From assembly GCA_024699325.1 (NCBI GenBank), contig JAILPS010000006.1, forward strand, positions 20,419 to 84,418: a stretch of 64,000 nt of DNA. The letters are read 5' to 3'. The notes below the pieces were generated by a model. The model worked only from the letters and a program-made list of their open reading frames with translations, searched no databases and was not told the origin of the DNA. The stretch is from Lachnospiraceae bacterium (lineage in GTDB: Bacteria > Bacillota > Clostridia > Lachnospirales > Lachnospiraceae). Of the stretch, positions 1,629 to 58,579 are shown in pieces. Position 1 is the first letter of the stretch; every line of letters begins with the position of its first letter. The position numbers were made by a program, and so were the translations under genes.

Positions 1629-3656
1629 ATGGAGAAGAAGGCATTATTTCCACAGGTTGGAAGAATTATACACGGTGGGGATTACAACCCCGAGCAGTGG
1701 CTTGACAGGCCGGACATATTAGAGGAAGACATACGACTTATGAAGAAAGCGGGCATCAACGAGGCTACACTTGGCGTGTTTTCATGGTCAATGCTTGAGC
1801 CAAGGGAGGGAGAATTTGACTTCACATGGCTTAAGGAGATTGTGGATAAGCTCTACGAGAACGGAATCTACACGATTATGGCGACGCCCTCGGGGGCAAG
1901 GCCTGCATGGCTTGACGAGAAGTACCCGGAGGCCAGAAGAGTCAACAAAAACGGCGTGAGGGAGCTTCACGGCATCAGGCACAACCACTGCATGACATCG
2001 CCTAAGTACCGCGAACTTGTGAGAATCATGGACGAGAAGCTTGGGGAAATGTTTGGCAACCACCCGGGCGTCATCATGTGGCATATCTCCAACGAATTCG
2101 GCGGGGAGTGCTACTGCGACAAATGTGTGCAGAAGTTCAGGGATTACCTGAGACAGAAGTTTGACGGCGACATAGAGAAGCTAAACCACGCCTGGTGGAA
2201 CACCTTCTGGAGCCACAATTTCAACAATTTTGACCAGATTAATCCTCCGTTTAGCCACGGTGAGTTTTCCAGCATGGGGCTCTCCTTAGAGTGGAGGAGG
2301 TTTACGACCATAAACACGGCGGATTTTTGCAGGGCAGAGATTGAGACTCTTAAGAAGTATAACCCGGATAAGCCCGCCACAACCAACTTCATGACCATGT
2401 ACGACGGTCTGGACTACAGGGTTATGGAGAAGGATTTGGACGTTATCAGCTGGGACAGCTATCCCAGATACCACAACGACTACGAGAAGCTCTCAGACAC
2501 ATTTTATTTTAACGCCTTCTGCCACGCGCAGATGCGCTCCATGAAGAGGGATAAGCCCTTCATGCTCATGGAGAGCGTTCCAAGTCTCGTAAACTGGCAC
2601 GATGTGAATAAGCTTAAGAAGCCGGGGGTTCACAAGCTGACATGTTTGCAGGCGGTGGCCATGGGGTCCGACACCGTGCAGTATTTCCAGTGGAGAAAGG
2701 GGCGCGGAAGCTTCGAGCAGTATCACGGAGCGGTGATTGACCACCTTGGAAGCGACGACACCAGAGTTTTCAGGGAGGTGGCTGACGTAGGCGAGACACT
2801 TCTAAAGCTTAAGGATGTGTGCGGCACAACCCTTAAAAACAGGGCGGCCATAATATATGACTGGGACACCAGATGGGCCTTCTACGAGGTCAGAGCCTTC
2901 GCCCACGACACCATCAGATACGACGACACCTGCATAAGCTTCTACAAAACCATGGCAAAGCTTGGCATAGAGTGCGATATTGTGGCGAGCGATTCAGACC
3001 TCTCACAGTACGAGTTCGTGATTGCGCCACAGATGTACATGCTTAGGAATAAAACCTCTGCCAACCTTAAGAATTACGTAAAAAACGGCGGAGTGCTTCT
3101 TGCTACCTACATGTGCGGCTATGTGGACGAGGACCAGCTGTGCTACTTAGGAGGTTTCCCGGGCGATGGACTTAAGGACGTGTTTGGTGTTACAATAGAG
3201 GAGATTGACGCCTACTATCCGTCTGAGAGAAACACTGTCAAAACAGATGACGGAGAGGTTTATACGGTCAGGGACTACGCTGAGATACTTAGGGACTGTA
3301 AGGCACGAGTCCTGGCCACCTACGGCGGTGACTTCTACGAGGGAAGCCCTGCAATCACTGAGAACGCCTGCGGAAGCGGTCACGCCATCTACCTGGCGGC
3401 CCGCATTGACGAGACCTCACAGGAGAAGCTCATTAAGCACTGTCTGGGCCTCACCAAAACTCTGGCATCAGAGTGCGAGAGGGCGCTTCCTGAAGAGGTG
3501 GGCTACTTCGTTCGCTGTGGCGAAAACAACACATTTGAATTCTTTTTAAACTACAGCGAGGAGACTAAAAATATTGGAAATATCGGCACGGATATGCTGA
3601 CGGGCGAGGAGATTAGCGCCCTTAAGCCGTATCAGGTGGCGGTTGTAAAACATTGA
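1629..3656 (+). CDS. GH42 beta-galactosidase
   Basis: 675 aa. It has GGDYNPEQW at the N-terminus, the HISNEFGGECYCDKC acid/base Glu plus Cys cluster typical of GH42, and no signal peptide. Confidence 0.9.
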   Translation: MEKKALFPQVGRIIHGGDYNPEQWLDRPDILEEDIRLMKKAGINEATLGVFSWSMLEPREGEFDFTWLKEIVDKLYENGIYTIMATPSGARPAWLDEKYPEARRVNKNGVRELHGIRHNHCMTSPKYRELVRIMDEKLGEMFGNHPGVIMWHISNEFGGECYCDKCVQKFRDYLRQKFDGDIEKLNHAWWNTFWSHNFNNFDQINPPFSHGEFSSMGLSLEWRRFTTINTADFCRAEIETLKKYNPDKPATTNFMTMYDGLDYRVMEKDLDVISWDSYPRYHNDYEKLSDTFYFNAFCHAQMRSMKRDKPFMLMESVPSLVNWHDVNKLKKPGVHKLTCLQAVAMGSDTVQYFQWRKGRGSFEQYHGAVIDHLGSDDTRVFREVADVGETLLKLKDVCGTTLKNRAAIIYDWDTRWAFYEVRAFAHDTIRYDDTCISFYKTMAKLGIECDIVASDSDLSQYEFVIAPQMYMLRNKTSANLKNYVKNGGVLLATYMCGYVDEDQLCYLGGFPGDGLKDVFGVTIEEIDAYYPSERNTVKTDDGEVYTVRDYAEILRDCKARVLATYGGDFYEGSPAITENACGSGHAIYLAARIDETSQEKLIKHCLGLTKTLASECERALPEEVGYFVRCGENNTFEFFLNYSEETKNIGNIGTDMLTGEEISALKPYQVAVVKH

Positions 3657-3674
3657 CATAATAATGGGGGTACT

Positions 3675-5384
3675 ATGCTTTATCAGGCTGACTTATGTAA
3701 CGGACAATACAAAAATCCCGTGCTCTACGCGGACTACTCTGACCCGGACGCGATAAGAGTTGGTGATGACTACTTCATGGTGGCATCCAGTTTTTCAAAT
3801 GCTCCGGCCATTCCGCTGCTTCACTCCACGGACCTTGTAAACTGGAGGGTGGTAAACTATGTCTGCGACGCGCTTCCGGAGTACAGATATATCAATCCAC
3901 AGCACGGAAGCGGTGTGTGGGCGCCTGCCATCAGGCACCACGGCGGGGAGTTTTTTGTGTTCTTTCCCATGCCCGACGAGGGCATATATGTAAGCCGGAC
4001 GCGCGACCCCTACGGCAAATGGAGCGCCCCTGCGCTAATCCTGCACGAGGCGGGGGTGATTGATCCCTGTCCGTTCTGGGATGATGACGGGAAACTGTAT
4101 ATGGTCAGCGCGGTTTCGGGCGCGAGGAAGGGCTATAACAGCGTCCTTAGACTGACATGTCTTGACCCTGTAAGCCTGCTTCCGCTCTCAGACAACAAAA
4201 TAATATATGACGGCCGGGGCACCATCTATGAGACCATCGAGGGGCCGAAGGTTCACAAGCGCGGCGGAAGATATTATATTTTTGCCCCTGCGGGCGGCGT
4301 CAAGGGCGGTTTTCAGGCCGTGCTTCGCGCGGACAATATCGAGGGACCCTACGAGATACGCGTCTGTATGCGCCAGGGTGATGCCAAAACCAACGGACCC
4401 CACCAGGGAGCCTGGGTGGACACGGTCACAGGGCAGGACTTCTTCATACATTTTCAGGATGTCTACGCCTGCGGGCGCATCGCGCATCTGCAGCCCATGT
4501 GCTGGAGGGACGGCTGGCCTGTTATCGGAAGGCCTGTAGCGGGACAAACCTGGGGAGAGCCGGTTGACACCTATGATAAGCCTGACGTGAGGGTTAGGCC
4601 GGAGGAACCGTGCGAGCCTGAAAACAGCGATGATTTTGAGGGCGAGAGACTAAGCTATATGTGGCAGTGGAATGCAAACCCTGATGATGGCTGGTATGAG
4701 CTTGAGCCGGAAAAGAGCGCCATAAGATTAAATGCCGTTAGGGCTAATGCCCTCAGGCAGCTTAGCGATATCAGGAATCTTATGCTGACCAAGTGGGCAG
4801 CGCCACAGTTTTGCGCGTCCATGAAGATGAATGTCGAAAATCTTAAGGCGGGGGATGTGGCCGGAATGGTTTCCCTTGGCATGATATTTGGCGGGATTGG
4901 TCTCAGGAAAAATGTTTACGGCGATTTCGAAGTGGTCTTAATATCGGGCAGCCAGGAGTTTGACTGCCAGGAAGCATTTACTAAAAGCGAGGAGACACTC
5001 TGGCCGGTTGACGAACAGAAACTCTTAGAGGCGCATTATAATATTTTGTTTGAATATAACGTGGAAGTGACCTCAAGGGTTGATGTTTTAGAGAGAAAAA
5101 ACTGTCTAGGAGTAGAGGTCTGGGTCAAGAATAGCCCGAGAGAGACCATAACGATGAGAGCGTACTATCTGACAGACGGTGTTAAGTCAGAGATTGACGG
5201 GGCAGTTCTTACATTTCCCGCAAGGGCAGGCAGATGGGTTGGCGTGAAATACGGGCCGTTCTGTTACAATAAGCCGCTTGCAGGGACCGAGACGGCGGAT
5301 GCCTCAGCGCCTGTAAAGCCTGATGAGGCTCAGAGAGGATATGTGACTGTTGACTATGTACACGTGACAGGGGGTAGGGCATGA
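3675..5384 (+). CDS. GH43 glycoside hydrolase (beta-xylosidase/alpha-L-arabinofuranosidase type) with C-terminal beta-sandwich domain
   Basis: 569 aa. NPVLYADYSDPDAIRVGDDYFMVASSF and the later WAPAI and EGPK blocks are typical of the GH43 five-bladed propeller. Confidence 0.85.
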   Translation: MLYQADLCNGQYKNPVLYADYSDPDAIRVGDDYFMVASSFSNAPAIPLLHSTDLVNWRVVNYVCDALPEYRYINPQHGSGVWAPAIRHHGGEFFVFFPMPDEGIYVSRTRDPYGKWSAPALILHEAGVIDPCPFWDDDGKLYMVSAVSGARKGYNSVLRLTCLDPVSLLPLSDNKIIYDGRGTIYETIEGPKVHKRGGRYYIFAPAGGVKGGFQAVLRADNIEGPYEIRVCMRQGDAKTNGPHQGAWVDTVTGQDFFIHFQDVYACGRIAHLQPMCWRDGWPVIGRPVAGQTWGEPVDTYDKPDVRVRPEEPCEPENSDDFEGERLSYMWQWNANPDDGWYELEPEKSAIRLNAVRANALRQLSDIRNLMLTKWAAPQFCASMKMNVENLKAGDVAGMVSLGMIFGGIGLRKNVYGDFEVVLISGSQEFDCQEAFTKSEETLWPVDEQKLLEAHYNILFEYNVEVTSRVDVLERKNCLGVEVWVKNSPRETITMRAYYLTDGVKSEIDGAVLTFPARAGRWVGVKYGPFCYNKPLAGTETADASAPVKPDEAQRGYVTVDYVHVTGGRA

Positions 5385-53365: not shown

Positions 53366-54022
53366 ATGGTTAGAACAGTACTTTTTGATTTGGACGGAAC
53401 ACTTATCGACACGGAGAAATACTACAGACGCTGCTGGCCCATGGCGCTTAAGCATTTTGGCTATGACATGAGCGATGAGCAGGCGCTGTCCATGAGGAGT
53501 CTCGGAAGGCCGTTTGCGCCTAAGCATCTTAAGGAAATGTTTGGCGAGGATATCGACTACATAAGCGTTCGCGACTACAGAAAAATCCTCATGAACGAAA
53601 TGCTTGAAAACGACGGAATAGAGCTTAAAAGCGGGGCGCTTAAGCTTCTCACATGGCTTAGGGATAACGGCTACAGGGCGGGAGTTGCCACCGCGACGGA
53701 CCTTATAAGGACAGAGAAATACCTTCGTGAGGTTGAAATATTTGACTATTTCACGGACATAATAAGCGCCACACAGGTGGCAGAGGGCAAGCCAAGCCCT
53801 GACATATATCTGTATGCCTGTGAAAAACTTGGCGTCACTCCTGGGGAAGTGATCGCCGTGGAGGATTCTCCAAACGGCGTGCTAAGCGCCTACAGGGCGG
53901 GCTGCAAGGTCGTCATGGTGCCTGACCAGACGGAGCCTGACGAGGAGCTCAAAAAACTGCTGTTTGCAAGGCTTGAAACCCTGGACGAGTTGATAACACT
54001 TCTTGCAAATCAAAATATATAA
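53366..54022 (+). CDS. HAD-family phosphatase (beta-phosphoglucomutase-like subfamily)
   Basis: 218 aa with VLFDLDGTLIDTE motif I and the EDSPNG motif. Confidence 0.85.
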   Translation: MVRTVLFDLDGTLIDTEKYYRRCWPMALKHFGYDMSDEQALSMRSLGRPFAPKHLKEMFGEDIDYISVRDYRKILMNEMLENDGIELKSGALKLLTWLRDNGYRAGVATATDLIRTEKYLREVEIFDYFTDIISATQVAEGKPSPDIYLYACEKLGVTPGEVIAVEDSPNGVLSAYRAGCKVVMVPDQTEPDEELKKLLFARLETLDELITLLANQNI

Positions 54023-54061
54023 GAGTATAATATAACGGAATATAACTTTCGTGAGGCGGAT

Positions 54062-55147
54062 ATGGAGACAATTGTCGTTAGAGAGAGTGAACTGGATGAC
54101 TATTATGAGGAGGCCGGAAGGATACTGAGAGAGGGAGGTTTAGTGGCATTCCCCACAGAGACCGTGTACGGGCTTGGCGGCAACGCTCTTGACCCGGAGG
54201 CCTCAGCTAAAATATACGCAGCCAAGGGTCGTCCAAGCGACAACCCTCTGATTGTCCATGTGGCGGATTTTGCTGATGTGGCGCCCCTTGTCAGGGAGAT
54301 TACCCCTGTGGCGGATAAGCTCATGAAGAAGTTCTGGCCGGGCCCTCTTACCATAATCATGAATAAGAGCGACATAGTGCCCACGGCGACCACAGGAGGC
54401 CTTCAGAGCGTGGCAGTCAGAATGCCCGTGCACCCCGTGGCCATGAAGCTTATCAGGTGCGCAGGAGTTCCCATAGCAGCGCCAAGCGCCAACACATCCG
54501 GAAGACCAAGCCCCACGAAGGCTGAGCACGTCATCGAGGATCTGTTTGGCAGAGTGGACATGATAATGGACGGCGGAAGCGTCGGGATAGGAGTTGAATC
54601 CACCATCGTGGACGTGACGGGTGAGGTTCCAATGATTCTTCGCCCGGGCTACATCACGAAGGAAATGCTCACCGAGGCCATAGGCGATGTGACAATCGAT
54701 AAGGCGGTCGCTAAGATTAACGAGGGTCAGCTGATCACAAGCAAGGAGCCGCCGAAGGCTCCAGGCATGAAGTATCGCCACTACGCCCCGAAGGCTCCGC
54801 TTAATCTAATCTGCGGAGACGAGGAGGAGGTCGAGGCAGAGCTTAGAAAGCTCGCCGCACAGGGCAAGAGCGACGGGCTGAGAGTTGGAATCATATGCTC
54901 TGACGGGGCAGACCTTGACGGATGCGCCGACAGAGTCTATCACATAGGAAGGCGCGGGGACACAGAGACCATCGCGCACAATATTTACGATTGCTTAAGG
55001 CAGTGCGACGCCGACAAGCTCGACGTCATATACAGTGACGATTTCGGGCTTGAGAACGACGAGGCGCTGGGGTATGCTGTGCAGAACAGAATTATGAAGG
55101 CTGCGGGGGGACATGTGCTCAACCTGAAGCAGAAGGGCGATCTATGA
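54062..55147 (+). CDS. tsaC: L-threonylcarbamoyladenylate synthase, long Sua5/YwlC type
   Basis: 361 aa with FPTETVYGLGGNA, KGRPSDNPLIVH and SANTSGRPSPT motifs plus a C-terminal Sua5 domain. Confidence 0.92.
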   Translation: METIVVRESELDDYYEEAGRILREGGLVAFPTETVYGLGGNALDPEASAKIYAAKGRPSDNPLIVHVADFADVAPLVREITPVADKLMKKFWPGPLTIIMNKSDIVPTATTGGLQSVAVRMPVHPVAMKLIRCAGVPIAAPSANTSGRPSPTKAEHVIEDLFGRVDMIMDGGSVGIGVESTIVDVTGEVPMILRPGYITKEMLTEAIGDVTIDKAVAKINEGQLITSKEPPKAPGMKYRHYAPKAPLNLICGDEEEVEAELRKLAAQGKSDGLRVGIICSDGADLDGCADRVYHIGRRGDTETIAHNIYDCLRQCDADKLDVIYSDDFGLENDEALGYAVQNRIMKAAGGHVLNLKQKGDL

Positions 55148-55626
55148 GTCATTATAAGCGGATTTTGTTTATATGTAACGACAACACTTGCAGGAGCATT
55201 ATGGCTGAGGCCATTATGAAGAGCATCGAGAACAGCATAAGCGAGGAAAACAGGCCCAGGGTGCACTCCAGGGGCCTTGTAGTGCTGTTTAGCGAGCCGA
55301 TAAACCCCAAGGCGGTCATGGTTATGAGAAAAAACCACCTAGAGCCCGCCAAGGAGACAAGCCAGCAGTTTACGGACGCTGACTGCAAGGAGGGAACGCT
55401 GTATCTCACCATGACCGAGAGGGAGAAGAGAATGGTTGAGGAGATGGTTCCGCATCTGTCAAACCTCTACACCCTGAGGGAGTTCGTGGGCGAGGTGGGG
55501 GACATCAACGAGCCCTACGGCGGAACCGAGGAAGACTATGAGATGGTATATGAGCACATCGACCTGATGGTCAAGATGGTTGCTCAGAAAATTATAAGAT
55601 TTGGGGAACAGAAGGAGGATGTGTAA
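55144..55626 (+). CDS. Low-molecular-weight protein phosphatase (YwlE-like arginine/tyrosine phosphatase)
   Basis: 160 aa with the CX5R(S) P-loop ICNDNTCRS. The position after tsaC matches ywlC-ywlE synteny. Confidence 0.85.
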   Translation: MSHYKRILFICNDNTCRSIMAEAIMKSIENSISEENRPRVHSRGLVVLFSEPINPKAVMVMRKNHLEPAKETSQQFTDADCKEGTLYLTMTEREKRMVEEMVPHLSNLYTLREFVGEVGDINEPYGGTEEDYEMVYEHIDLMVKMVAQKIIRFGEQKEDV

Positions 55627-56066
55627 TGATAGCGATAGGAAGTGACCACGGCGGATTCGCACTTAAGGAGGTTGTGGCGAAGCATTTGAAGGAGTTGGGA
55701 CTTGACTATGTGGACTGCGGCTGCTACGACATTTCAAGCGTGGATTATCCTGTGTACGCACAGGCGGTTGCAAGAGAGATACAGTCAGGCAAATGTGACA
55801 GAGGAATACTGGTGTGCAGCACGGGAATAGGAATCTCCATGGCTGCCAACAAGTGCACAGGCATAAGAGCTGCTCTTTGCTCAGAGCCATACAGTGCCAA
55901 GATGACCAGACTTCACAACGATGCCAATGTTTTGTGCATGGGCGGACTGGTTGTGGGGGACAACTTAGCGCTCGAGATAGTTGACACATTTTTAAACACA
56001 GAGTTTTCAGGCGAGGCCAGACATCAGAGAAGAATTGATCTGATCGAGTCAGGCAAGCTTGTGTAA
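55626..56066 (+). CDS. rpiB: Ribose-5-phosphate isomerase B
   Basis: 146 aa with IAIGSDHGG and the CSTGIGISMAANK motif. Confidence 0.93.
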   Translation: MIAIGSDHGGFALKEVVAKHLKELGLDYVDCGCYDISSVDYPVYAQAVAREIQSGKCDRGILVCSTGIGISMAANKCTGIRAALCSEPYSAKMTRLHNDANVLCMGGLVVGDNLALEIVDTFLNTEFSGEARHQRRIDLIESGKLV

Positions 56067-56089
56067 GATGTTTTATGGGGGATAAAACT

Positions 56090-56278
56090 ATGAGCAGGGG
56101 TACAGGATTTGGAATACTTGGCGTGATAGTTTTGATTATCATGCTGGCGCTGGGGTCATGCGGCGTTAACACCGACAGGGGAATAGACAGGACAGGTGCA
56201 GGCGACTATGTTGACTACTACGGCTGCCCGAACTCCAGGAGAGTCAAGAAGCTCAACCTGGCAAAAAAGAAGAGATAA
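56090..56278 (+). CDS. Small lipobox peptide A (62 aa), candidate precursor/substrate of the adjacent radical SAM enzyme
   Basis: The track ORF starts at 56075. ATG 56090 follows GGGGGAT. The sequence is MSRGTGFGILGVIVLIIMLALGSCGVNTDRGIDRTGAGDYVDYYGCPNSRRVKKLNLAKKKR. It has a signal peptide with an LGSC lipobox and a C-terminal module shared with peptide B. Confidence 0.65.
   Translation: MSRGTGFGILGVIVLIIMLALGSCGVNTDRGIDRTGAGDYVDYYGCPNSRRVKKLNLAKKKR
56215..56278 (+). repeat. Direct repeat copy 1 (3' end of peptide A gene)
   Basis: It shares an identical 21-mer, CTACTACGGCTGCCCGAACTC, with 57974-57994. The remainder is about 75 percent identical. Confidence 0.8.
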
Positions 56279-56281
56279 TCT

Positions 56282-57859
56282 ATGGTTAGAGAAGTGACAC
56301 CAGATCTTAGAATTCTGCTCGTGGAGGTCACGCAGAAGTGCAATGCATCCTGCGACCACTGCGGAAGCAGATGTGATATCCATAGCGCGGAGGTTTTGAC
56401 AGCCGAGGATATTTTGGGAGTTTTTCGAGATGTCAGGGACAATATAGGGACCGATGTCATGATTAATATCACAGGCGGCGAGCCCCTTATGAGGCGTGAC
56501 CTGTTTGATATTATGGGCCAGGCCCACGACATGGGATTTGACTGGGGGATGGTCACCAACGGCTCCATGATTGACGACAACATCATAGAGAAGATGCGTA
56601 GTGCCGGCATGAGGACCATAACGATTAGTCTTGACGGTCTGGCGCACACACACGAGACCATCAGACATCTTCCGGGGTCTTTTGAGCGCATTATGAAGTC
56701 CCTTAAGAAGCTTAAGGATGCGGCGTTTTTAGACTGTGTGCAGGTGACATTTACATCAAACAGGAAGAATTACAGGGAGTTTCCTAAGCTCTACGAGAGG
56801 CTTGAGCAGATCGGAATAGATTCTGTGAGGACCAGCATCATAGACCCTATCGGAAGGGCTTGCGATCACAGTGAGCTACTCATGGGGCGCGAGGAGATAC
56901 GCTTCATGATGGATTTCGCCAACCGTGTGAACGCGGCTGGAAGGATGCCTGTCATCTGGGGCTGTCCGCATTTTCTGGGAGATAAGCTTGAAAACAGGCA
57001 CTTCTTCTGCTTTGCGGGGATATATGCGGCGAGCATTCTCTATAACGGAGACATATTTGTGTGTCCGAATGTCCCCAGAAGACCTGAGCTTATTCAGGGC
57101 AATATTAAGACCGAGCGCTTCAGCGAGGTCTGGAAAAACGGCTATGATTACTTTAGACACAGAGTGCTTCCCGAGAAATGTGAGACTTGTAAATACCGCG
57201 ACGACTGCGCGGGCGACAGCCTCCACACATTTGACTTTGACAGGAAAGCGCCAAACTTCTGCTATAAGGAAATATTTGACGTGAATATAGGAAAATACGA
57301 AAACTGGCTCAAAAAACACTACGGAAGTGTTGAGATAACAGAGATTTCGCCGGATGAGCCGGCGCCAGCCATCTACATAGAGCCTGGCGCCTATGAGGAG
57401 ATTAAGTCATACTTTCACATGGGGGTCAGACATCCCCTGAGCATGTTTGAGCAGCAGATGGGGCTTGTTGGATTTAAGGTTGACGGCGACTACATAGTCC
57501 GCTATGCATTTCCATCTGTGATTGAGGCGAAGGCGGCGGACCTTGCGGTGTTTACGCCTGGGACGCTATCGCACGCGAGGAAGCAGACGGCCATCATTAA
57601 GCGCAATGTCATGCACTCTGACTGGGCCGACATGCCTGGCAATGACAGGCTTCGCTTTTTGGGCTTCATACATTCACATCCCATGCAGGAGGAGTTGTGC
57701 TACAGCGTGGGAGACGAGATAATTCACAAAAGTCTGTATAAGAAGTTTGGGGATTATATAGGACTGTTAGTTAATCCTGAACACGATTTGATTGGCGCCT
57801 ATGTGGGCGGCGATGACATCGTTCAGGGAAATCTCAAGATTGTAAATGTGGGGGATTAA
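56282..57859 (+). CDS. Radical SAM / SPASM-like enzyme with a C-terminal JAMM/MPN-like domain
   Basis: 525 aa. The radical SAM motif is CNASCDHC (C20, C24, C27). The auxiliary-cluster Cys pattern is CX12GX4C (CFAGIYAASILYNGDIFVC) followed by CETCKYRDDC (CX2CX5C). The C-terminal ~165 aa carry FIHSHPMQEELCYSVGDE (HxH-x8-S-xx-D) and an upstream EPGAYEE Glu. Confidence 0.8.
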   Translation: MVREVTPDLRILLVEVTQKCNASCDHCGSRCDIHSAEVLTAEDILGVFRDVRDNIGTDVMINITGGEPLMRRDLFDIMGQAHDMGFDWGMVTNGSMIDDNIIEKMRSAGMRTITISLDGLAHTHETIRHLPGSFERIMKSLKKLKDAAFLDCVQVTFTSNRKNYREFPKLYERLEQIGIDSVRTSIIDPIGRACDHSELLMGREEIRFMMDFANRVNAAGRMPVIWGCPHFLGDKLENRHFFCFAGIYAASILYNGDIFVCPNVPRRPELIQGNIKTERFSEVWKNGYDYFRHRVLPEKCETCKYRDDCAGDSLHTFDFDRKAPNFCYKEIFDVNIGKYENWLKKHYGSVEITEISPDEPAPAIYIEPGAYEEIKSYFHMGVRHPLSMFEQQMGLVGFKVDGDYIVRYAFPSVIEAKAADLAVFTPGTLSHARKQTAIIKRNVMHSDWADMPGNDRLRFLGFIHSHPMQEELCYSVGDEIIHKSLYKKFGDYIGLLVNPEHDLIGAYVGGDDIVQGNLKIVNVGD

Positions 57860-57860
57860 T

Positions 57861-58037
57861 ATGAAGAGACATAAGGGGATTATTCTTGCGGTTATGCTGT
57901 TGCTTGCAAGCCTTGCGCTTGGAGCATGTAATTTCACAAGTGTATTTGACGGAGGGGGAGGCGAGTATATGAGCTACTACGGCTGCCCGAACTCTAAGAA
58001 GGTTAAGAAGCTTAACCTTAAGAAGAATAAGAGATAG
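57861..58037 (+). CDS. Small lipobox peptide B (58 aa), paralog of peptide A
   Basis: The track ORF starts at 57846. ATG 57861 follows GGGGGAT and lies 1 nt after the enzyme's stop. The sequence is [58 protein letters not shown]. Confidence 0.65.
57974..58037 (+). repeat. Direct repeat copy 2 (3' end of peptide B gene)
   Basis: See copy 1. The differences are mostly synonymous or R/K exchanges. Confidence 0.8.
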
Positions 58038-58048
58038 AGAGGTGTGCG

Positions 58049-58534
58049 ATGGCTAAGAGAAAGGATTATATCAGCTGGGATGAATATTTTATGGGGGTTG
58101 CTGAGCTGTCCGCGAGGAGAAGCAAGGACCCTGGAACACAGGTGGGAGCCTGTATTGTGAGCCCGTCTAACAAGATTATATCCATGGGCTACAACGGTTT
58201 TCCGATGGGCTGCTCTGACGATGAATTCCCCTGGGAGAGGGACGGAGAGGATCCGTTTGACACGAAGTACACATATGTGACTCACGCTGAGATGAACGCA
58301 ATCCTTAACAACCGCACCTCCAGCCTTGAGGGCTGCAGGCTGTATGTGACGCTGTTTCCATGTAACGAATGTGCGAAGGCTGTCATCCAGTCAGGCATCA
58401 AGGAGGTAATCTACGCCTCCGACAAATACGCCCAGACAAGCGCCGTGAAGGCGAGCAAGAGAATGTTTGACGCCGCGGGCGTTAAATACACGCCATACGA
58501 GGGCAGCAACAAGGAAATACTGCTTGTTCTCTAA
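58049..58534 (+). CDS. comEB: dCMP deaminase (ComEB-type)
   Basis: 161 aa with the zinc motifs HAEMNA and PCNECAK. Confidence 0.9.
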
Positions 58535-58550
58535 TTTTTGGCTGTTTTGC

Positions 58551-58579
58551 TTGACTGCGGTTTTAATAACTGATATTAT
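58551..58579 (+). promoter_or_regulatory. Promoter TTGACT-N17-TATTAT upstream of the malic enzyme gene
   Basis: -35 at 58551-58556 and -10 at 58574-58579. Confidence 0.45.

Follow-up and report, generated by a model that had tools for sequence, protein, structure and literature searches.

Two open reading frames of about 60 codons, neither of them annotated, are here raised to firmly supported genes for small lipoprotein-type peptides. They lie on either side of a radical SAM/SPASM enzyme gene in the window (the whole stretch of 64,000 nt that was analysed), and the key part of each product is its end: a seven-residue tag followed by a tail of fixed length. The reading preferred here, to which we give a probability of about 0.87, is that the genes are real and that selection keeps the C-terminal tag, most likely because the neighboring fusion of a radical SAM enzyme with a protease acts on it.

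Each peptide is built from the same kinds of parts: a lipoprotein-type signal peptide; a linker, short in peptide A and Gly-rich in peptide B; and at the C-terminus YYGCPNS and a basic tail (13 residues in A). In both, 17 residues follow the Gly of the tag. Both pass a lipobox rule of the PROSITE PS51257 type (N-terminal basic residue, uncharged hydrophobic stretch, Cys at positions 15-35). The sequence-only reading had credited the two genes with signal-peptide and lipobox features, and these hold up, as LALGSC in A and LALGAC in B; it had also called the genes essentially unalignable upstream of the repeat, which is slightly overstated, as the six lipobox codons share 13 of 18 bases and differ by four synonymous changes and one S/A change. 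Pfam and NCBIfam scans of both peptides returned only weak signal-peptide matches. The exact 62-aa and 67-aa products of gene A, and the exact 58-aa product of gene B, are present in public protein collections. A Shine-Dalgarno-like GGGGGA (56077-56082) lies 7 nt 5' of the peptide A ATG; the same hexamer (57850-57855) precedes the ATG of peptide B, there inside the enzyme's last codons (Val-Gly-Asp), and its distance to the ATG is 5-7 nt for the two peptides. The string TGGGGGAT, which lies within 57850-57863 at the start of peptide B, also precedes peptide A, at 56076-56083. The peptide A stop ends 3 nt before the enzyme ATG.

Table. Features of the peptide-enzyme cassette, in window coordinates
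Feature	Position	Strand	Remarks
Peptide gene A	56090..56278	+	62 aa from ATG 56090; alternative ATG 56075
Lipobox codons, peptide A	56144..56161	+	L-A-L-G-S-C
Repeat copy 1	56215-56278	+	last 20 codons and stop of peptide A; reads YYGCPNSRRVKKLNLAKKKR, then stop
Radical SAM/SPASM enzyme with C-terminal JAMM/MPN (predicted)	56282..57859	+	525 aa; PF04055 residues 14-173, PF13186 residues 243-304
JAMM/MPN metalloprotease domain (predicted)	57377..57856	+	about residues 366-525
JAMM catalytic motif	57449-57451, 57671-57715	+	E390 ... H464-x-H466-x8-S475-x2-D478
Peptide gene B	57861..58037	+	58 aa; ATG 1 nt after the enzyme's TAA stop
Lipobox codons, peptide B	57912..57929	+	L-A-L-G-A-C
Repeat copy 2	57974-58037	+	last 20 codons and stop of peptide B
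Antisense ORF through repeat copy 1	56218-56691	-	157 codons
Antisense ORF through repeat copy 2	57977-58285	-	102 codons

Each repeat forms the 3' end of a small protein gene, and the two genes are genuine and the product of an ancient duplication. The repeats are identical at 51 of 64 bases and share an exact 21-mer that is absent elsewhere in the window (shuffles matching: 0 of 100). Read in the sense frame, the 20 codons carry five synonymous differences (TCC/TCT, GTC/GTT, CTC/CTT, CTG/CTT and AAA/AAG), two R/K exchanges, one A/K and one K/N, and the stops are TAA and TAG; a recount reproduced every figure in the earlier codon tally, down to the one synonymous difference within YYGCPNS. 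By the Nei-Gojobori method (NG86), 7.0 synonymous differences over 11.8 sites and 5.0 non-synonymous differences over 48.2 sites give a pS of 0.59, a pN of 0.10 and a dN/dS of about 0.10, figures that rest on only about 12 synonymous sites. When 12 random base changes are placed in the repeat, four or fewer residues change in just 0.3% of trials (P = 0.003), and a stop codon arises in 48%. Contigs assembled from four DNA runs of one gut-metagenome study, which may be the source sample, are identical to this stretch except for single low-depth differences, and those runs yielded no usable population signal. None of the sequencing runs listed as containing the stretch is an RNA run, a result that carries no information on expression. 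One run X2 contig has T for C at window position 56148, giving Ala20Val in the signal peptide of peptide A; this variant (depth 3.6) may be an assembly error.

Homologous loci extend the comparison well beyond the pair. The 34 public loci compared, all from gut or rumen Lachnospiraceae or Clostridia MAGs, each encode a full-length 525-aa enzyme at 50-67% identity. In 33 of them, the enzyme gene has one to five tagged small ORFs directly next to it, all in its own orientation; every one closes with X-Y-G-C-P-N-S and a basic tail, with 17-19 residues after the Gly. The public loci contribute 55 such ORFs and the window two, making 57 copies. The X residue is mostly Y, with H in one locus (L021) and M or L in two (L028, L029), and Tyr-Gly is invariant in all 57 copies as well as in the 120 metagenomic proteins examined. 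In public metagenomic data, a profile search retrieved 474 small proteins with the tag; all are free of Pfam domains, and where a name is given it is 'hypothetical protein'. Among the best 120 of the 474 (P0121-P0240), 17-19 residues follow the invariant Gly in 119 and exactly 18 do so in 102; the distance from Tyr-Gly to the C-terminus appears to be measured.

Codon by codon, 50 copies tell the same story as the pair. Seven of the 17 positions hold a single residue throughout (Y, Y, G, C, P, S and one L); entropy summed over the 17 codons is 8.95, 7.92 and 21.5 bits at codon positions one, two and three, so that the third position has 2.4-2.7 times the entropy of the first two; the invariant Ser of the tag is encoded by AGC as well as by TCN codons; pN is below pS in 1224 of 1225 copy pairs; and in a six-frame check over the copies, the sense frame alone is open in all. 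Frameshifts or stops in the homologous ORFs, with the nucleotide repeat kept, had been named as the pattern that would point to a DNA- or RNA-level element. The reverse is seen: the ORFs are intact at 33 of 34 loci and the nucleotides vary. Purifying selection targets the encoded tag, X-Tyr-Gly-Cys-Pro-Asn-Ser, and the Lys/Arg-rich tail, without a DNA or RNA target; the original claim of selection on the peptide is borne out both by the low dN/dS of the pair and by third-position variation in homologues whose ORFs stay open.

The front halves behave differently. The N-terminal parts of the tagged peptides are variable and follow two unrelated architectures. Twelve of 52 family members (the two in the window and 10 relatives) pass the lipobox rule and the other 40 fail it; members without a lipobox start with an aromatic/basic amphipathic helix, then have an acidic, Pro-rich linker. 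The variable front half probably serves only as a targeting or anchoring module: in the window and in relatives labelled Lachnospiraceae it would be a lipoprotein signal peptide, where other rumen Clostridia have the amphipathic helix instead.

The enzyme itself has about 1700 homologues; among the matches listed, identity is 50-67% over the full length. Its best NCBIfam match is TIGR04133 ('rSAM_w_lipo'), at 243.2-246.9 bits, below the 425-bit cut-off. The radical SAM core (PF04055) begins at residue 14, which leaves no room for an N-terminal RRE. At the other end, the last 160 residues or so matched nothing in Pfam or PDB sequence searches; as these searches are blind to the domain, its fold was revealed only by predicted structure. 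In the AlphaFold2 model the domain has a mean pLDDT of 91.8, and Foldseek, given the predicted domain, returned Rpn11, BRCC36 and CSN5 (probability 1.0, E 6e-8, TM-scores up to 0.74). The C-terminal domain is, on this model, a predicted JAMM/MPN fold with a complete catalytic motif; E390, H464, H466, S475 and D478 are invariant in 31 sequences. At four loci (L040, L047, L052 and L053, about 2501-4765), tblastn matches to some 300 enzyme residues span about 2.26 kb, which suggests an insertion or a pair of neighboring paralogues.

One enzyme gene, and nothing else, accompanies the tag. Apart from cases that trace to near-identical pairs of loci or to spurious antisense ORFs, no third gene family recurs beside the enzyme, which leaves one fused enzyme and its peptide or peptides as the unit. 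We infer that the enzyme recognizes and modifies the peptides at the tag, so that they would be RiPP-like substrates. The neighbors in the window (tsaC, a phosphatase gene, rpiB and a dCMP deaminase gene) are common only to the congeneric genome. A consensus scan of 54003-58579 placed promoter-like sites only before tsaC (54003) and the malic-enzyme gene (58551); with the weak consensus used, it found no intergenic terminator between these sites, the interval from rpiB to the deaminase gene included, and the cassette may therefore share a transcript with the four neighbors named above. At L032, the fused enzyme gene (L032:2405-4069) is followed by a terminator-like hairpin.

Another way to understand the repeat is as an element of the DNA or RNA (a regulatory repeat, terminator, sRNA or recombination site) in which the open frames are incidental. 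It does sit at two gene junctions, and in both copies the purine-rich tail codons (AAGAAGAGA) stand directly 5' of the next start codon, where a contribution to ribosome binding is possible. Against this, the search for RNA structure that the sequence-only reading had proposed came back negative by all three routes taken: the repeat has no match in Rfam; neither copy, on either strand, folds more stably than its shuffles (z -1.2 to +0.4); and RNAalifold predicts 0 base pairs over 34 copies. Variation is concentrated at third codon positions, with the Ser codon switching between AGC and TCN, and most relatives carry their copies as a tandem array 3' of the enzyme gene, without junctions like those of the window. 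We regard such an element as extremely improbable. The opposite strand has a better superficial case. The antisense frame that shares wobble positions with the sense frame reads ...RLSFLT(L/F)LEFGQP, then stop, in both window copies; it is open in both, and differs at 3 of 19 residues against 4 of 20 in the sense frame. With the antisense frame so well kept, the codon pattern of the pair alone cannot identify the coding strand; it is comparison across homologues that settles it. Over 50 copies, the antisense frame has three invariant columns against seven in the sense frame, and a residue entropy of 17.6 against 13.4; in 28 of the 50 it stays open for no more than 17 codons upstream; the longest antisense start-to-stop ORF is six codons or shorter in more than half of the copies; and the antisense ORFs of the window overlap two other genes, that of the conserved enzyme and that of the deaminase. 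A conserved product encoded on that strand is, to all intents and purposes, ruled out by the frame closure in those 28 copies. The window's antisense ORFs are 'shadow' conservation, of a kind that could mislead gene callers.

Two further perspectives accept the peptides and dispute their history or their partner. If the 3' end had been duplicated or converted recently, the synonymous excess would be an accident of a small sample, and the sample is small: only about 12 synonymous sites are compared, and of the six pS values obtained for the window and the congeneric locus (L003, genome G023), the within-genome one (0.65, from 18 codons) is the smallest. A pS of 0.6-0.65 is nevertheless near saturation, and in the congeneric genome the enzyme gene is likewise flanked by one upstream and one downstream copy; the N-terminal parts share 21 of 47 and 18 of 43 residues with their positional counterparts, against 13-18 for the other pairings, and the same tag is retained throughout the 57 copies and the 474 metagenomic proteins. 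The shared layout and the slightly closer positional counterparts place the duplication before the split of the two species. The earlier description of the genes as old paralogues thus stands, with synonymous sites near saturation within and between genomes, and recent duplication or conversion is very unlikely. Alternatively, the peptides could be real and selected while the tag serves a partner not linked to them, as a sorting, anchoring or protein-binding signal. A basic C-terminal tail of fixed length does resemble a sorting signal, and one locus (L032) encodes the fused enzyme but has no tagged ORF in the 2.5 kb that flank it on each side. The tag adjoins the fused enzyme, however, in 33 of 34 public loci despite unrelated neighborhoods and with no other shared neighbor; the start and stop codons of the window peptides are tightly coupled to the enzyme gene; and related enzymes without a JAMM domain pair with related Y-G-x-P motifs. 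An unlinked partner is, on these grounds, improbable, and the argument returns to the fused enzyme as the likely agent that acts on the tag.

The relatives of that enzyme help to narrow what it might do. Among 151 genomes of the same bacterial family, two have the fused enzyme and five others have a JAMM-less enzyme, 35-40% identical. At the three JAMM-less loci where an adjacent lipoprotein was found, the motif is VYGPPE[WY]F, VYGPP or VYGxP, and Cys is absent from it: these are acidic lipoproteins with two to five such repeats, beside the JAMM-less homologues (L083:1102-1884; L085:3165-3548 and L086:3141-3677, both on the minus strand). Elsewhere, secreted proteins with repeated [TK]KYGV[YVF]FPDD or EKYGV motifs (L054:1778-2468, L061:2115-2465, L062:1940-2461 and L060:2167-2406) lie directly upstream of Melainabacteria-type and Endomicrobia radical SAM/SPASM genes, whose products are more distant from the enzyme. 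The best NCBIfam match of the L054 enzyme is TIGR04103, at 237 bits, below the cut-off, and intermediate relatives of the enzyme score 164-237 bits against that family. What the partner sets have in common is X-Tyr-Gly, in most cases with x-Pro after it.

Radical SAM spliceases excise a tyramine unit at X-Y-G sites, and working splice tags read ...P-L/G-Y-G-L-P-I (PMC11414181, PMC10533398, PMC11626197). As the VYGPP partners of the unfused relatives are free of Cys, the shared target would be Tyr/Gly and not Cys; as X-Y-G is common to these partners and to the published spliceases, Tyr-Gly-directed radical chemistry is taken as the most likely step. That is, the cytoplasmic radical SAM domain would act on the invariant Tyr-Gly, with splicease-like excision of tyramine as the best single candidate chemistry; the fused JAMM domain would trim the peptide, plausibly at or near Gly-Cys, shedding the basic tail; and the product would be exported and lipid-anchored by the Sec, Lgt, Lsp pathway. 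These steps do not stand equally firm. Splicing as the radical chemistry is put forward tentatively, by analogy with the published enzymes; a Tyr- or Cys-based crosslink in its place would be a doubtful but serious candidate. A Cys-based thioether, as in sactipeptides or ranthipeptides, is less likely as the shared chemistry, because the related YGPP partners have no Cys; for the JAMM-fused clade by itself it keeps some probability. Splicing alone is an insufficient explanation of the conserved Cys-Pro-Asn-Ser and the fixed-length tail. Trimming by the JAMM domain at or near Gly-Cys, again by analogy, seems quite possible, at somewhat less than even odds: JAMM enzymes that cut after Gly include Mec+ (CysO-Cys) and QbsD (QbsE-GGCF).

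A more specific and rather unlikely elaboration supposes that the tag is a portable C-terminal 'maturation tag': a splicease-like radical SAM domain would turn Tyr-Gly into an alpha-ketoamide or another Tyr-derived warhead; the JAMM domain would cut Gly-Cys and shed a 17-residue basic follower; and gut and rumen Firmicutes would display on their surface a membrane-anchored peptide (here lipidated) whose C-terminus is reactive, such as a tethered protease inhibitor. If true, this would be the first RiPP-type pathway with a deubiquitinase-type peptidase and with a follower peptide measured from the C-terminus.

No publication on the tag or on a radical SAM/JAMM fusion was found, in a search that did not cover the main splicease survey (Scott et al. 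2022). The nearest annotated system is the 'rSAM/lipoprotein system' of TIGR04133 and TIGR04134, which are hypothetical equivalogs of NCBIfam, defined computationally. As there, an enzyme whose best match is TIGR04133 adjoins small predicted lipoproteins, and both flanking ORFs pass the lipobox rule; the VYGPP lipoproteins of relatives in the same family share Y-G-x-P with the tag. Neither peptide matches TIGR04134 (lipo_with_rSAM, cut-off 39.8 bits) at E values up to 10, and the whole genome has no match to that model, which does match the Bacteroides thetaiotaomicron control. Unlike that system, moreover, the enzyme here falls below the 425-bit cut-off and has an extra JAMM/MPN domain; the motif is single, C-terminal and Cys-containing, followed by a basic tail of fixed length; and most members of the tag family are not lipoproteins.

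The spliceotides offer a chemical parallel: the radical SAM spliceases PlpX, PcpX and RhaX excise a tyramine unit at X-Y-G (PMC11414181, PMC11626197). The likenesses are an rSAM/SPASM enzyme with a substrate bearing an invariant X-Y-G, and a published splice tag, P-L-Y-G-L-P-I, that shares Y-G-x-P with the tag described here; some spliceotide systems also have two components, without a separate RRE protein, and accept protein-sized substrates. The differences are that the Nif11 or NHLP leader is absent here, and that a fused JAMM domain, Cys-Pro-Asn-Ser and a basic tail are not described in the spliceotide literature examined. The enzyme scores 110.6 bits against TIGR04103 (cut-off 725 bits), a comparison with the family model; presumably PlpX is a member of that family.

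The JAMM domain has relatives of a quite different kind. Rpn11, BRCC36, CSN5 and the bacterial Mec+/QbsD resemble the predicted domain in fold and in the complete Glu / His-x-His / Ser-x-x-Asp zinc site. JAMM/MPN+ peptidases of the ubiquitin-like and sulfur-carrier pathways cut directly after Gly near a C-terminus; Gly-Cys is the bond cleaved by Mec+ and QbsD, and a cut between Gly and Cys in Y-G-C-P would fit that pattern. In contrast to these peptidases, the domain here is fused to a radical SAM enzyme, its His-to-Ser spacer is eight residues rather than the seven of HxHx7Sx2D, and the peptides contain neither a ubiquitin-like fold nor Gly-Gly.

The mycofactocin (MftA/MftC/MftE) and PQQ (PqqA/PqqE) pathways are a further comparison. 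There, too, a small peptide has a strictly conserved Tyr motif at its C-terminus, the precursor genes adjoin the maturase, and it is the modified end, not a leader, that is conserved; modification by an rSAM/SPASM enzyme is followed by a peptidase cut, of which JAMM trimming would be the proposed counterpart here. The enzyme nonetheless scores only 95 and 83 bits against the mycofactocin and PQQ families (cut-offs 265 and 381 bits), and the RRE (PqqD or MftB) is absent; a signal peptide with a lipobox suggests that the product is exported and anchored rather than a soluble cofactor, and the precursor is present in as many as five copies, whose front ends vary. The variable front also sets the system apart from the classical RiPP precursor, in which a conserved, RRE-bound leader precedes a variable core: here the tag is conserved and the front is variable, a reversal that counts against the preferred reading.

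Set against these systems, the tag points to the likely substrate of a radical SAM/JAMM fusion enzyme, itself uncharacterised, that hundreds of Clostridia from gut and rumen encode; it also connects this enzyme with the Y-G-P-P 'rSAM/lipoprotein' systems, a far larger group. If tyramine splicing followed by JAMM trimming proves true, the family of protein-engineering tools founded on splicing would be extended, and the gut microbiome would hold a new kind of surface-anchored modified peptide.
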